The notes under the pieces: generated by a model
The model's database searches: none
Seen by the model: only the letters and a program-made list of their open reading frames with translations
Told to the model about the DNA's origin: nothing
Origin: Kiritimatiellia bacterium
Lineage (GTDB): Bacteria > Verrucomicrobiota > Kiritimatiellia > RFP12 > UBA1067
Direction of reading: 5' to 3'
Assembly (NCBI GenBank): GCA_045641645.1
Contig: JAZUHK010000047.1
Location: 51,316 to 115,315 of the forward strand
Length of the DNA stretch: 64,000 bases
Made by a program: the position numbers and the translations under genes
Shown: positions 925-26,634 of the stretch, one piece after another
Layout of the letters: every line of letters begins with the position of its first letter
Position numbering within the stretch: the stretch's first letter is position 1

Positions 925-953
925 TTGCAATCCGATCGGAAATATAGTATAAT
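925..953 (+). promoter_or_regulatory. Near-consensus sigma70 promoter TTGCAA-N17-TATAAT upstream of pyrH
   Basis: ttgcaa at 925-930 and tataat at 948-953 with a 17-nt spacer. The first in-frame start (GTG 961) is only ~8 nt downstream, implying a leaderless or very short-leader mRNA. Confidence 0.45.
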
Positions 954-960
954 TCCAATC

Positions 961-1689
961 GTGAAAAAACATCTTCCTCAGGTGAAGTACCGCCGGATCC
1001 TCCTGAAGCTCTCCGGCGAAGTTCTCGCTAACCGCGAGACGGGCGAATGCATTGACCCGAAGAATCTCGCCTTCATGGCGGAGCGGATCAAGAAAATCCA
1101 CGCGCTGGGCGTGGAAGTGGGCATCGTCCTCGGCGGCGGCAATATCTTCCGCGGGCTTACGGGCGCGGGGAAGGGCGTCAACCGCGTGACGGGCGATTCG
1201 ATGGGCATGCTCGCGACGATCATCAATGCGCTCGCGATGATGAACGCGCTCGAGTCGATCGGAGTTCCTACGCGCGTCATGACGGCAATCGAAATGCCGA
1301 AACTCGCCGAGCCCTTCATTCAGCGCCGGGCGCTGCGCCATCTGGAGAAGGGGCGCGTCGTCATTTTCGGCGGCGGCACGGGAAACCCCTATTTCTCCAC
1401 CGATTCGGCGGCGGCGCTGAAGGCGAGCGAAATCGGCGCGGACGCGCTGCTCAAGGCCACGAAGGTCGATGGCATCTACACGGCCGATCCCAAGAAGGAT
1501 CCGAAGGCGAAGAAGTACGGGTCGCTCAAGTACGAAACCGCGCTGGAGAAGCGGCTCAAGGTGATGGACTCCGCCGCCTTCGCCCTGTGCATGGACAACA
1601 ACATCCCGATCATCGTTTTCGATTTCTTCGACCCGCGCGCGCTGGAAGGCGTGGTCAAGGGCCGGACGATCGGCACGATTGTGAGCTGA
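961..1689 (+). CDS. pyrH: UMP kinase
   Basis: [12 protein letters not shown]…GGGNIFRG…[14 protein letters not shown] motifs are classic UMP kinase. The ORF track starts at 835, but that N-terminal extension would cover the promoter; GTG 961 gives the canonical N-terminal length. Confidence 0.85.
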
Positions 1690-19391: not shown

Positions 19392-20231
19392 ATGAAAGCG
19401 AAACTGCAAGAGGTCTTGGACTGGGCCGAGGCGCGGGAGTGTGCCGTCGGCGCGTTCAATACGCCGACCTTTGAGAATGTGACGGCGGTCATCGCCGCAG
19501 CGGAAAAGCTGGGGACTCCGGTCATCGTCTCGCATGCGGAGTTGCACGAAAACGAGGGCGCGCCCATCGACCGGATTGGGCCGATGATGCTTTGGGCGGC
19601 GGAACGGGCGAAAGTCCCCGTCTGCGTTTTCCTTGATCACGGCGAGACGATTGCGTACGTTAAGCACGCCGTCGATCTCGGCTTCACGGGCGTCATGTAC
19701 GACGCATCGCTCAAGTCCTACGAGGAGAATGTCGCCGGCACGAAGGAGATTGTCGCCTACGCTCACGCGCGCGGGGTGCAGGTCGAGGCGGAGATCGGTG
19801 CGCTCGCGACGCGCGAGGGCGGCGCGGATGGTGCCGGAGCTGCGGTCTATACCGAGCCGGAACTGGCGAAGCGGTTCGTCGCCGAAACGGGCATTGACGC
19901 GCTCGCCGCGTCCTTCGGTACGGCGCACGGCATCTACAAGGTGAAGCCGAAGCTCGACTTCGGCCGCATCCGCAGGATTCGCGAATTGACGGCGGTGCCG
20001 CTCGTGATGCACGGCGGGAGCGGCGTTTCGAGCGAGGATTACCGCACGGCGATTGGTTGCGGCGTCCGCAAGATCAACTACTATTCCTATATGGCGAGGG
20101 CGGGCAAGAACGCCGTCGCGGAGAAGCTTGCGGCGGAAGAGGTGACGTTTTTCCATGTGCTGGCGGCGGCCGCGCCCCCCGCCATGACCGAGGACGCGGC
20201 GAAGGCGATGGAGGTGTTTTGCGGACGATAA
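19392..20231 (+). CDS. Class II ketose-bisphosphate aldolase (FBA/tagatose-bisphosphate aldolase family)
   Basis: …AVGAFNTPTFE…LDHGE…MHGGSGVS… metal-dependent aldolase motifs. Confidence 0.75.
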   Translation: MKAKLQEVLDWAEARECAVGAFNTPTFENVTAVIAAAEKLGTPVIVSHAELHENEGAPIDRIGPMMLWAAERAKVPVCVFLDHGETIAYVKHAVDLGFTGVMYDASLKSYEENVAGTKEIVAYAHARGVQVEAEIGALATREGGADGAGAAVYTEPELAKRFVAETGIDALAASFGTAHGIYKVKPKLDFGRIRRIRELTAVPLVMHGGSGVSSEDYRTAIGCGVRKINYYSYMARAGKNAVAEKLAAEEVTFFHVLAAAAPPAMTEDAAKAMEVFCGR

Positions 20232-20310
20232 ATCGAAAAATTCCCCTCTTGCTTCTTGCTCAAACTTTTTTCGATTTTTCGTTTGTGAGCGGAGGGCGGG
20301 TGAGTCGCGA

Positions 20311-20400
20311 GGAGAAGAAGGTGGAGAAAGTCGGTGGAGGTGGACAGTGGTGGGGAGAAGAAGGTGGAGAAAGTAGGTGGAGGTGGAGAATGGTGGGGTT
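20311..20400. repeat. 45-bp tandem repeat x2 (gagaagaaggtggagaaagt[c/a]ggtggaggtgga[c/g]a[g/a]tggtgggg[a/t]) in a convergent intergenic region
   Basis: Seen directly; two units differ at 5 positions. Confidence 0.7.
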
Positions 20401-23745: not shown

Positions 23746-26634
23746 ATGATGACAGGGGTGATGATGGTGGCGGTGCTCGCCGTGGGGAATGCCGCGTGGA
23801 GCGGGCGCGAGTCGCATCCGGCGGTGGTCAATCCGGTTTGCGGTTACGAAGAGGGCACGGTTGTTGATCTGGGCGGCGAATGGGAGTTTATGGCGCGCGG
23901 TGCTGCGGCCGATCGCCACCAGTTCTTCCGTCAGATCGAATATGACCGTGATTGGCCCGATGCGCGGAAGCTGCGTGTGCCCGGCAATTGGGAGGCGCAG
24001 GGCGTCGGGAAATCTGTACCGAAACAGGAACGCCGCACCTATGACGGCTACCGCCAGCTGCCGCTGAACCACTATTTCAACGGCCACGGTTGGTATCGGC
24101 GGACGGTGAAGATCCCCTCGGCATGGCAGGACCGCCGCATTTGGCTTAAGGTGGGCGGAGTTACCAGCGAGGGGTGGTTCTGGGTGAACGGACAGCCAGT
24201 CGCGCATGTCCTCGATTACTGCGCGACGCGCAAGTTCGAAATTACCGATCTCGTGAAGCCCGGCGAAGACGCGCGGCTGGTCGTCGAGGTTTCCAATGCC
24301 GGCGTCTCGAAGCACGGCTATCGCGACGCCTGTGGCATCTGGGGCGGAATCACGCGGGCGCTGGAGTTGGAGGCGACACCGCCGACCTTCATTGACGATG
24401 CGTGGGTGCGGGGCGATTTTGACCGGCAGGAGGCCGAGGTGCACGTCGAGGTCAATTGTTCGGATTGTTCAGATTGTTCGGATTGTTCGATTGGGGGGAG
24501 CGGGTCTTGGGCGGTTCGGGTGGAAATCGAGGGCAAGGTCGTTGAACAGGCAATCAAGCAATCGAACAATCCGAACAATCGAACAATTACGAGGGTTCCG
24601 CTTCGTAAGTTTCGGGCGTGGTCGCCGGAGTGTCCTAACCTCTACACGGCGCGGGTGGAGCTGGTCGTCGGCGGCAAGACGGTGCAGACGCGGTTGGAGC
24701 GGTTCGGCGTGCGTAAGCTGGAAGTGCGCGGGCGGGACATTTATCTCAACAATCTGCCGTTTTTCTGGCGGGGCGTCGGTTTCCATGAAATCGATCCGAT
24801 TCTCGGACAGCATCCAGCGGACCGCGGCTATTACCGCGACCGGGTGGCGAAAATCCGCGCCTGCGGTTTCAATGCGGTGCGGCTGCATACGCATTGCGAG
24901 TCGGCCGAGTTCTTCGAGGCCGCCGACGAGCTGGGGCTGATGGTTCAGGCGGAGCTGCCGTATTACGGCGATCATCCCGTTAATTACGCGCCGTTCGATC
25001 CGTTAGGTGATGCCGAGGAACTGTATCTGAACTTCCGGCGGTATCCGTCGTTCGCCGTCTATTCGGGCGGCAACGAGGGCTCGTTCGGACCGGTGCTGGG
25101 CAGGCGTTTCTACGATGAAGTCAAGGCGCGCGATCCCGATCGGCTGGTTCTTGAGCAGACGACGATGGGGTATACGCAGTGGCCGGAGCGCGGGCATGTG
25201 GGGACTACCGACTTCGTCTCGCAGCCGACGGAGATTTGGCCGCGCGGACAGTTGAACCCCGATCGTCCGCTGCTTGCGCACGAGTACATGAATCTCGCGA
25301 TCAAGCTGGATACGCGGCTTGAGGATCGTTATACGGGAGTATGGCGGGTGCCGCAGAAGCAGTCTGATCGTGACGCCTGGCTCGCGCGGTTCGGCCTTGA
25401 TCGCGCCTTTGGCGATCGGCTGCAGGATGCTCAGCACGCGCTGCAGGCGCTCTGGCAGAAGCGCGGCATCGAGGCGGCGCGCAAGGATCCTTACTGCGAC
25501 GGCTATTATTTCTGGTCGATGCTGGATGCGACCTGCATCAACATGATCGGCTGGACGGGCATGATCGACTGGGACAACGAGACGTATATGGCGCAGGGCG
25601 TCTTGAATGCGTTTTTCGAGGAGAAGCAGGGCGGGCAGACGATGGCGGGGTTTGCGGTCTTCAATTCACCAGTCGGAGTTTTCGCGGATACCGAGCCCGA
25701 GGATCTGCAGGTTTATGCCGGCGATCGGATCAAGGCGAAGGTGTGGCTGGCGAATTACGGCGAGGAGACGCTCAAGGCGGCGCGGCTCGATTGGCGGCTT
25801 ACGGATGCGCTGGGCGCGGTGTTGGCATCGGGCTTCAGGTCGATCGGGGATCGTCCGGTCGGAGCGGTCGCCGAGGTTGCTGCGCTCAATTTTGCCGCGC
25901 CCGAGGTCAAGGCGCCGACGGCGGCGAAACTGGAGGTGGCGATCGCCGGGCACGCGAACAGCTGGCCGTGCTGGCTCTTTCCGCGACGGGCGCGGCGCGA
26001 CGGACGAGATTTGGCGGTATGTGGGCGGATGCAGGCGGCGGTGGCGGCGTCCTATCAGGGGGTGCTACCGCCGGAGCGGGCGGCGGAGGCGAAGGTGGTG
26101 ATTGCCGATTACGGCTCGCCGGAGGCCGCCGCGGCGCTTCAGCGGGGGCAGTCGCTCATCGAGGTTGGCGGGATGGACGGAGCGTCGAATGTGGAGCTCG
26201 GCTGGTGGTTCTTCGACGGCATCGCCGGCGCGGTCTTCGACGTGAAGAGTCCGATGCTTAAGTATCTGCCGCCGTCGCCGACGCTCTCGACGCTGCATTT
26301 CCGGATTTTCAAGCAGGGTCTGCGCCTGCCGATCGAGGGCTTCGGGCAGGAGGGGCTGATCGCGGTCAGCGACGAGGCCAAAGGGTGCTTCGTGAATCTC
26401 GCCGAGCGGGCGCTGATGAACGGTGCGCGGCATTTGCTCGCCTACGGACTCGCGGTTGATGAACCGTTGCCGGAGGCGTTGGCGATTTTGGACGGTCTCA
26501 TCGATCGCGCGAGGATGCCGGTTGCCGCAGACGAGCGGCGGAGCGGCGGCGGGAGCGTCGGTGTGCGAGGGATGGCAACGGGCGGGCGGACCTCGTCGGC
26601 AGATGGGCAGGCGGGCGGCAAGGGTCGTGAGTAA
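23746..26634 (+). CDS. Glycoside hydrolase family 2 (beta-galactosidase / beta-glucuronidase-like), 962 aa
   Basis: …CPNLYTARVELVVGGKTVQTRLERFGVRKLEVRG…NLPFFWRGVGFHE… and a TIM-barrel block …NAVRLHTHCESAEFFEAADELGLMVQAELPYYG…. Confidence 0.75.
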   Translation: MMTGVMMVAVLAVGNAAWSGRESHPAVVNPVCGYEEGTVVDLGGEWEFMARGAAADRHQFFRQIEYDRDWPDARKLRVPGNWEAQGVGKSVPKQERRTYDGYRQLPLNHYFNGHGWYRRTVKIPSAWQDRRIWLKVGGVTSEGWFWVNGQPVAHVLDYCATRKFEITDLVKPGEDARLVVEVSNAGVSKHGYRDACGIWGGITRALELEATPPTFIDDAWVRGDFDRQEAEVHVEVNCSDCSDCSDCSIGGSGSWAVRVEIEGKVVEQAIKQSNNPNNRTITRVPLRKFRAWSPECPNLYTARVELVVGGKTVQTRLERFGVRKLEVRGRDIYLNNLPFFWRGVGFHEIDPILGQHPADRGYYRDRVAKIRACGFNAVRLHTHCESAEFFEAADELGLMVQAELPYYGDHPVNYAPFDPLGDAEELYLNFRRYPSFAVYSGGNEGSFGPVLGRRFYDEVKARDPDRLVLEQTTMGYTQWPERGHVGTTDFVSQPTEIWPRGQLNPDRPLLAHEYMNLAIKLDTRLEDRYTGVWRVPQKQSDRDAWLARFGLDRAFGDRLQDAQHALQALWQKRGIEAARKDPYCDGYYFWSMLDATCINMIGWTGMIDWDNETYMAQGVLNAFFEEKQGGQTMAGFAVFNSPVGVFADTEPEDLQVYAGDRIKAKVWLANYGEETLKAARLDWRLTDALGAVLASGFRSIGDRPVGAVAEVAALNFAAPEVKAPTAAKLEVAIAGHANSWPCWLFPRRARRDGRDLAVCGRMQAAVAASYQGVLPPERAAEAKVVIADYGSPEAAAALQRGQSLIEVGGMDGASNVELGWWFFDGIAGAVFDVKSPMLKYLPPSPTLSTLHFRIFKQGLRLPIEGFGQEGLIAVSDEAKGCFVNLAERALMNGARHLLAYGLAVDEPLPEALAILDGLIDRARMPVAADERRSGGGSVGVRGMATGGRTSSADGQAGGKGRE
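24454..24590. repeat. Imperfect ~40-bp inverted repeat (gattgttcg-type 9-bp units on one arm, their reverse complement on the other) inside the GH2 coding region
   Basis: Arm 1 is caattgttcggattgttcagattgttcggattgttcgattg and arm 2 is caatcaagcaatcgaacaatccgaacaatcgaacaattac. They encode CSDCSDCSDCS and QSNNPNNRT in frame. Confidence 0.75.

Follow-up and report, generated by a model that had tools for sequence, protein, structure and literature searches.

Two copies of a dispersed short repeat probably flank a native beta-hairpin in a glycoside hydrolase gene of Kiritimatiellia

A 64,000-nucleotide stretch of a Kiritimatiellia genome (contig JAZUHK010000047.1, positions 51,316 to 115,315; hereafter the window) carries a gene of glycoside hydrolase family 2 (GH2), encoding a protein of 962 amino acids (23746..26634, + strand; defined from the list of open reading frames (ORFs) and its translation). 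Within this gene two repeat arms face each other across a short segment of native sequence. We propose that the arms are two separate, in-frame and oppositely oriented copies of a lineage-specific short repeat dispersed in Kiritimatiellia, that the protein tolerates them, and that the hairpin which they can form is a by-product. We give this reading a probability of about 60%.

Arm 1 lies at 24454-24493 on the + strand (AATTGTTCGGATTGTTCAGATTGTTCGGATTGTTCGATTG) and is made up of the dispersed element, arrayed in the ATTGTTCG sense; arm 2, at 24551-24590 on the + strand (CAATCAAGCAATCGAACAATCCGAACAATCGAACAATTAC), is an array in the CGAACAAT sense. Both are built of 8- and 9-nt units (ATTGTTCG[G]), in mutually opposite orientation. 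In arm 1, ATTGTTCGG-type units with lengths of 9, 9, 9 and 8 nt are followed by ATTG. Arm 2, the reverse-complement array, starts with the degenerate units CAATCAAG and CAATCGAA and continues into a canonical 8-9-8 core, CAATCGAACAATCCGAACAATCGAACAAT, the form that occurs in other genes of other Kiritimatiellia metagenome-assembled genomes (MAGs). Analyzed as tandem arrays, the arms have a period of 9 with 4.4 copies and a period of 8 with 4.5 copies. Unit matches with up to three mismatches numbered 5 in the window (0.35 expected), four of the five being located within the arms. The repeat finder returned an inverted repeat of 22 nt without mismatches (24472-24493 / 24559-24580), whose halves are 65 nt apart and which extends imperfectly to ~40 nt; it is the best short-range inverted repeat in the window.

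A previous inspection of this sequence (the original prediction) had described two inverted arms of ~40 nt at 24454-24590, translated in frame within the GH2 ORF. Both statements were borne out, the arms being read as NCSDCSDCSDCSI (residues 237-249) and (AIK)QSNNPNNRTI (residues 269-282). The hairpin which it suggested was likewise recovered by folding and is predicted to be strong. A stem-loop formed by the 22-nt repeat and its 65-nt spacer is predicted for single-stranded RNA or DNA at 24472-24580, with no strand assigned. The RNA fold of the arm region reaches -60.5 kcal/mol (z = -4.9) and the DNA fold has z = -6.5; in both cases 0 of 200 shuffles were as stable. An Rfam scan of 24200-24850 gave nothing above threshold, the sole match being a miRNA-precursor model with 28.6 bits against a gathering score of 82.

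The segment between the arms (24494-24550, + strand) is native GH2 sequence and codes for the beta-hairpin of the Ig-like domain (GGSGSWAVRVEIEGKVVEQ). Each arm has 37.5% GC and the centre 64.9%, compared with 63.5% for the gene and 62% for the window, and the GC content at third codon positions is 0.23 in arm 1 and 0.40 in arm 2 versus 0.77 for the gene. The AT-richness claimed for the entire segment therefore applies to the arms and not to the centre, which matches the gene; the 137 nt together have 48.9% GC. The PF00703 profile of the Ig-like domain is matched end to end (profile positions 1-109 of 109, residues 214-323), and hence there is no insertion of 45 residues. In an AlphaFold2 model of the protein (mean predicted local distance difference test score (pLDDT) 81.5), strands are found at residues 229-237, 255-261, 264-269 and 279-285, the second and third of which form the centre. 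Arm 1 falls in a low-confidence loop (238-254, pLDDT <50 at 241-252), and arm 2 covers the loop 270-278 and the start of strand 279-285. According to the model, the arms would thus occupy two neighboring loops at the surface of the Ig-like domain, on either side of the native beta-hairpin.

Homologs of the GH2 protein are consistent with this picture. The stretches retrieved because they hold a GH2 homolog or the element are numbered with an L (L001, L003, L171, etc.). Homologs that lack the arms keep the strands of the centre (xxRVxIEGxxVE), and their two loops are shorter by ~12 and ~5 residues. The centre has diverged as fast as the remainder of the gene, with 59% nucleotide identity to L001, whose arms are 100% identical to those of the window, and with 56-67% identity to distant homologs whose arms are 90-100% identical. 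Only the arms are foreign, adding ~12 and ~5 residues to two loops, and the effect on the enzyme is probably small, namely two longer surface loops. A single inserted palindromic element of ~137 bp (~45 residues), as originally predicted, is contradicted by the complete PF00703 match and by a centre with the GC content of the host and native strands. Alignment with orthologs upholds an insertion in two loops, where the arms are extra sequence, but not one of 45 residues, as the centre is present without arms. That the ORF tolerates the arms was supported, and their positions correspond to loops of variable length among orthologs. Additional copies of the arms, which the original prediction proposed to look for, were found in related Kiritimatiellia MAGs, but not in the window, which contains only the two arms.

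An 18-mer common to both arms was scanned against one genome per species (185,579 species), and more than 116 stretches matched. Among the matches listed, the element is carried by about 23 stretches, which come from Kiritimatiellia MAGs and rumen RUG bins (at least 10 in all), and nine of them are contigs of a single MAG (JAZUGW01). Mixed arrays of 8- and 9-nt units were confined, among these same matches, to the Kiritimatiellia and RUG stretches; the matches in other phyla were coding repeats of 9-nt units only, (CCGAACAAT)n, translated into PNN or GLF repeats. We treat the pure repeats outside Kiritimatiellia as convergent. Viral contigs scanned with the 24-mer core yielded 0 matches, and there is therefore no sign of a phage origin. 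In 80 metagenome loci of GH2 homologs from the Joint Genome Institute (JGI; ~0.45 Mb) the element was found in none, indicating that it is restricted to a sub-lineage. The literature searched for repeats in Kiritimatiellae or Kiritimatiellota contained no published description of the element.

The commonest core of the element is [G/A]ATTGTTCG-ATTGTTCGG-ATTGTTCG-ATTG, ~29 nt in length. Spacings of 8 and 9 nt between units are equally frequent (52 each), resulting in a 17-nt period, and ATTGTTCG and ATTGTTCGG units are equal in number. The 5' edge of the arrays is sharp, and the 3' side decays into ATTGNNNG units. The flanks of 38 arrays showed no duplicated target, only [G/A]A at the 5' edge and the ATTGNNNG decay at the 3' side. 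Single copies of ~29 nt consist of direct 8- and 9-nt units without a self-complementary partner and are not palindromic. Outside GH2 the element is mostly present as a single copy, and no such copy includes the GH2 centre. Long intergenic arrays of up to 14 units are often located just upstream of gene starts. The genes flanking them, assigned from N-terminal sequences only, encode HtpG-like and RpiB-like proteins, a membrane protein and others; no transposase, recombinase or reverse transcriptase was seen among these N-terminal sequences.

In-frame copies were found in unrelated genes, encoding a LeuRS editing domain, an HrpA-type helicase (three copies), an FGGY kinase, a DNA methylase and RHS proteins, and further ones in thrC, by our own reading of that gene, and in a ROK-family gene in L001. 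The core is read in two frames in different genes, as QSNNPNNRTI or as IEQSEQSNN. In all of the at least 13 coding copies outside GH2, CGAACAAT is on the sense strand; arm 1 of the GH2 gene is the only coding copy in the opposite, ATTGTTCG sense. Neither strand of the element has stop codons in any frame, and the strand bias would therefore most simply be explained by peptide-level selection against the readings rich in Cys, Val, Leu and Phe.

Two observations were made alongside. The three copies in the HrpA-type helicase of L167 (1240-1263, SNNPNNRTI; 1459-1482, SNNPDNRTT; 2506-2529, SNNPNNRTI) all have one orientation, which suggests local clustering of element copies. Other arrays of 8-nt units (CTTGCACA, ACATTCGA, GATTGAGT, CTCTTCAC) adjoin arrays of the ATTGTTCG element (L163 6660-6720; L095 300-470; L148 1627-1690; L104 5340-5375), and Kiritimatiellia genomes may hold several related short-repeat families.

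The behavior of the arms within the GH2 family was compared in 120 homolog proteins, and DNA was retrieved for seven arm-bearing homologs. Both arms are present in 7 homologs, arm 2 only in 5 and arm 1 only in 0. Between the window and L001, which share 63% nucleotide identity, 23 of 23 arm codons are identical, compared with 51% of the codons for conserved residues in the rest of the gene. Although L203 is only 58% identical overall, its arm 1 matches that of the window down to the variant unit TTGTTCAG; arm 1 is identical codon for codon in the window, L001 and L203. In L004, ATTGTTCGATTG is read as IVRL instead of CSI. The conservation of the arms is at the level of DNA and not of the peptide. 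In the closest homolog, L003 (79% nucleotide identity), arm 1 is shortened and arm 2 is degraded (77% identical), whereas in distant homologs (58-63% identity) the arms are 97-100% identical. The number of units also differs, with four in arm 1 of the window versus two in L003 and at least 15 in arm 2 of L201. Genes with both arms fall into at least six separate clades of the GH2 tree, each of which has arm-less sister genes.

Two homologs from the same sample, L001 (~1030-1440) and L002 (~800-1210), share a tract of ~400 nt over the Ig-like domain that is 80-95% identical, whereas outside of it they are 40-70% identical. To judge from the sequences, this tract suggests recombination or gene conversion, either between paralogs or between co-resident strains, or else an assembly chimera; the pair of arms could therefore move between GH2 genes by recombination. 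The closest homolog with degraded arms, the distant ones with intact arms, the scattered clades and the shared tract lead us to favor turnover of the arms over simple descent. Among the 120 homologs the same two loops hold many unrelated low-complexity peptides and other repeats, and both loops are evidently very permissive. GC-rich palindromes resembling repetitive extragenic palindromic (REP) sequences, for instance GGGAGGGTCGCGCTGCCGCGCGACCG and its complement, are translated in frame in other GH2 homologs (L014 2666-2723 and 3959-4082; L020 1565 and 2897-2955; L032 503-571, with perfect 28-nt arms; L038; L008; L029). In these genes they occupy loop 1 and recur ~1.3 kb further downstream, with peptides including GRAVAPRPP and GGSRSCATE.

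Under the reading that we favor, the arrays would have arisen by insertion or by local expansion from native codons that resemble a unit, such as the GTC GAA CAG (VEQ) that ends the second strand. They would persist because the loops tolerate almost any peptide, and turnover, or gene conversion with other copies, would keep them near the consensus of the family. Recombination of an Ig-like domain cassette could spread the pair of arms between GH2 paralogs. The hairpin would then be a by-product of two copies that face each other by chance, and any effect of it on mRNA stability or translation would be secondary.

The main rival of a tolerated repeat is that selection acts on the inverted pair as a nucleic-acid structure, in the form of an mRNA hairpin or a DNA cruciform made from two copies of the element. 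It might act as a processing site for RNase III or another enzyme, as a paired binding site for a repeat-recognising factor, or as a pause site that separates the folding of the N-terminal sugar-binding domain from that of the Ig-like domain. We regard such a structure as possible, if unlikely. It is favored by long predicted hairpins in the window and in 6 of the 7 homologs with both arms (z -4.3 to -8.3), and by the co-occurrence of the arms in seven homologs with arm 1 never alone. Several further observations that favor it also weigh against our own reading. The arms are conserved far beyond synonymous expectation, and their near-perfect identity, including synonymous sites and the shared variant unit, could reflect purifying selection on a nucleic-acid element. 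Arm 1 is retained in an orientation otherwise avoided in coding sequence and persists only where it is paired, a hint that pairing matters.

Moreover, unrelated, purine-rich inverted repeats flank the same beta-hairpin in other homologs. They score 16-17 in L013 and L039 and 12-13 in L053, L054 and L047 (null maximum 9-11), with the arm peptides KVKVEGEG / PSPSYFTL and KCKIE / LNFTF, respectively; those of L007 (score 12, null maximum 16) and L027 (score 9, null maximum 10), with ELKVES / NSQLSTL, stay below the null maximum. Selection for a stem or a template-switch mutational bias are possible explanations. Finally, a second inverted pair of the element was found in L171 (MAG JAZLMR01), at 929-970 (+) and 1088-1103 (-) of a stretch with a thrC-like gene. 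Its first arm is located in the 5' leader, directly upstream of AAGGATTGAGATG, which comprises the ribosome-binding site and the start of the gene (MKYVSTRKG...), and its second arm lies ~100 nt inside the coding sequence, read as QSNNPNNPNNLNNRTI. The predicted RNA hairpin (z = -6.4) encloses the ribosome-binding site and start codon. Two other points count against a dispersed repeat as the source of the arms: the dispersal is known from related MAGs and not from the window's own genome, of which 64 kb hold two copies, and no propagation mechanism was identified.

The selected structure is opposed by the pattern of decay. The intact arms are identical and hence uninformative about covariation in the stem, and the decayed copies show no compensating changes: mutations in L002, L202 and L003 are uncompensated and pairing is lost, with z = -1.0 in L003. 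Arm 2 occurs alone in at least five homologs, and in L201 it has expanded without a fold signal. About half of the GH2 homologs have no inverted repeat of any kind, copies of the element elsewhere are mostly single, and no Rfam family matches. The homologs counted for arm co-occurrence are not independent of one another phylogenetically.

A bolder view concerns the element itself, and we put it forward as a tentative and rather doubtful one. The element could be an undescribed self-propagating or actively maintained short repeat of gut and rumen Kiritimatiellia, held close to a single consensus in many species by a dedicated sequence-specific activity and with the inverted pairs in GH2 and at the thrC start acting as RNA hairpin switches. 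If so, the dedicated activity might be a binding protein, an integrase-like enzyme or a templated repeat-adding enzyme, and the element would invade coding sequence in frame with a strict strand bias.

An intragenic inverton appears improbable. In this reading, a recombinase would act on the 22-nt repeats to flip the 65-nt segment between them, and a premature stop would switch the enzyme off. The form of the locus fits, as a perfect 22-nt inverted repeat with a 65-nt spacer lies inside a coding sequence, in-silico inversion of the spacer places a stop codon directly after arm 1, and intragenic invertons are documented in gut bacteria (bioRxiv 10.1101/2023.03.11.532203). However, all eight independent homolog contigs that bear arms (8/8) are in the forward, open orientation, and no recombinase was present among the 8 large ORFs checked within ~10 kb. 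The arms belong to a repeat that is mostly single and built as a tandem array, unlike invertase sites, and the inverted form would only truncate the protein and not recode it.

Slightly harder still to sustain is a simple sequence repeat (SSR) contingency locus, in which slipped-strand mispairing would alter the loop length (arm 1, 9-nt units) or the reading frame (arm 2, 8- or 17-nt units). The unit number does differ between homologs, long intergenic arrays of the element are located just upstream of gene starts, and heptamer repeat tracts in 5' untranslated regions drive phase variation in Haemophilus (PMC12721329). Yet each arm has 3-4 near-identical units, few for slippage at a high rate, and frameshifted alleles were seen in 0 of the 120 homolog proteins. 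Moreover, slippage leaves the inverted arrangement and the dispersal of a fixed 8-9-8 core unexplained.

That a single mobile palindromic element was inserted whole, similar to a miniature inverted-repeat transposable element (MITE) or a Rickettsia palindromic element (RPE) and as in the original prediction, is very improbable. Terminal inverted repeats of ~40 nt around ~57 nt, AT-rich arms and an in-frame position would suit it, but the centre is native, the edges have no target-site duplication, and the other genomic copies are single arms without the GH2 centre. We rejected it on the GC content and homology of the centre and on the completeness of the domain. Least probable of all is selection on the peptides themselves, for example on a metal- or disulfide-forming Cys-Ser-Asp loop: CSDCSDCSDCS is conserved in 5 homologs, but most homologs lack it and the loop is of low confidence in the structure model, and a protein-level motif was rejected because other loci read the same DNA in different frames and because the synonymous sites have likewise stayed fixed.

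The host gene is assigned to GH2 by three Pfam domains, all above their gathering scores: the N-terminal sugar-binding Glyco_hydro_2_N (PF02837, residues 41-183, score 61.9, cut-off 28), the Ig-like Glyco_hydro_2 (PF00703, 214-323, score 47.5, cut-off 23) and the TIM-barrel Glyco_hydro_2_C (PF02836, 326-469, score 35.4, cut-off 21). Every named homolog of the 962-residue protein is a protein of a Kiritimatiellae MAG. The neighboring genes encode AraC-type regulators with a periplasmic-binding domain, a LamG-domain protein, a GH39 enzyme and GDSL lipases, and the gene sits in a Kiritimatiellia-type carbohydrate-utilisation cluster. At its C-terminus (26545-26631, residues ~934-962) the protein has a Gly-rich tail of low model confidence with the last residues ...DGQAGGKGRE. 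Many GH2 homologs share the ending D-G-x-x-G-G-x-G-R-[EDL], a conserved tail that could be a sorting or anchoring signal. Elsewhere in the window, at 20311-20398 and 20225-20282, a purine-rich 43-nt unit (GGAGAAGAAGGTGGAGAAAGTAGGTGGAGGTGGACAATGGTGG), present in two copies with a 93% match, adjoins an inverted repeat of 16 nt that is AT-rich. The 43-nt repeat is located between convergent genes for an aldolase and an AraC-type regulator.

The best-documented case of dispersed repeats invading housekeeping genes in frame is that of Rickettsia, and the case described here would show that the phenomenon is broader. Kiritimatiellia are a free-living, carbohydrate-degrading lineage of gut and rumen, and their element is structurally unlike that of Rickettsia. 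It is distinguished by tandem 8- and 9-nt units that have a fixed core, by a strict coding-strand bias and by the polarity of its arrays, and the family is tractable for studying how repeats spread and how they remain uniform across species. There is also a risk for annotation, as the CSDCSD, QSNNPNNRTI and IEQSEQSNN peptides and the intragenic hairpins could be mistaken for functional motifs, RNA genes or invertons.

Among known systems, the short tandemly repeated repetitive (STRR) sequences of cyanobacteria are tandem heptamer (7-nt) units, lineage-specific, present at many loci and described as intergenic. The Kiritimatiellia element resembles them in having lineage-specific short tandem units (8 or 9 nt compared with 7) at many dispersed loci, but it has a fixed 8-9-8 core, a sharp 5' edge with a decaying 3' side, and in-frame genic copies. 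REP sequences, which also build bacterial interspersed mosaic elements (BIMEs) and REPINs, are imperfect palindromes whose inverted pairs are mobilised by the RAYT transposases and which are almost always located outside genes. Like REPINs and BIMEs, the element is a short dispersed repeat that sometimes forms an inverted pair ~60-70 nt apart and could then fold into a long hairpin; unlike them, its units are not palindromic, and its copies occur singly for the most part, with many of them inside coding sequence. DNA uptake sequences (DUS) or uptake signal sequences (USS), found in Neisseria and Pasteurellaceae, are single motifs of ~10-12 nt with thousands of copies per genome. Like the element, they are short conserved DNA motifs that lie within coding regions in frames that are tolerated, at times in inverted pairs, whereas the element forms tandem arrays and is far rarer (two copies in the 64-kb window, at least nine contigs in one MAG).

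Intragenic invertons of gut bacteria consist of inverted repeats that flank short intragenic segments (bioRxiv 10.1101/2023.03.11.532203). The GH2 locus is similar in that an inverted repeat surrounds a short segment within a coding sequence of a gut-associated bacterium, but it differs in being found in the forward orientation only in the assemblies, in the lack of a recombinase among the large ORFs checked within ~10 kb and in arms that come from a dispersed tandem-repeat family. It also departs from a MITE, as its interior is host gene and no target-site duplication is present around the 38 arrays.

RPEs are individually palindromic. They are dispersed, ~150 bp long and inserted in frame in unrelated protein-coding genes (PMC10969869). 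The Kiritimatiellia element shares neither their defining palindromic build nor their size of ~100-150 bp: it is ~29 nt long, or longer in arrays, consists of 8- and 9-nt tandem units and is not self-complementary, so that a palindrome needs two copies. Its dispersal in multiple copies applies to the related genomes, where in-frame copies in unrelated genes were found. Both elements are multi-copy, both occur in intergenic regions as well as in frame in unrelated housekeeping genes, and both add a family-typical peptide that is tolerated at the protein surface. By analogy, RPEs are the system that the Kiritimatiellia repeat would seem most like, and they provide its closest working likeness.

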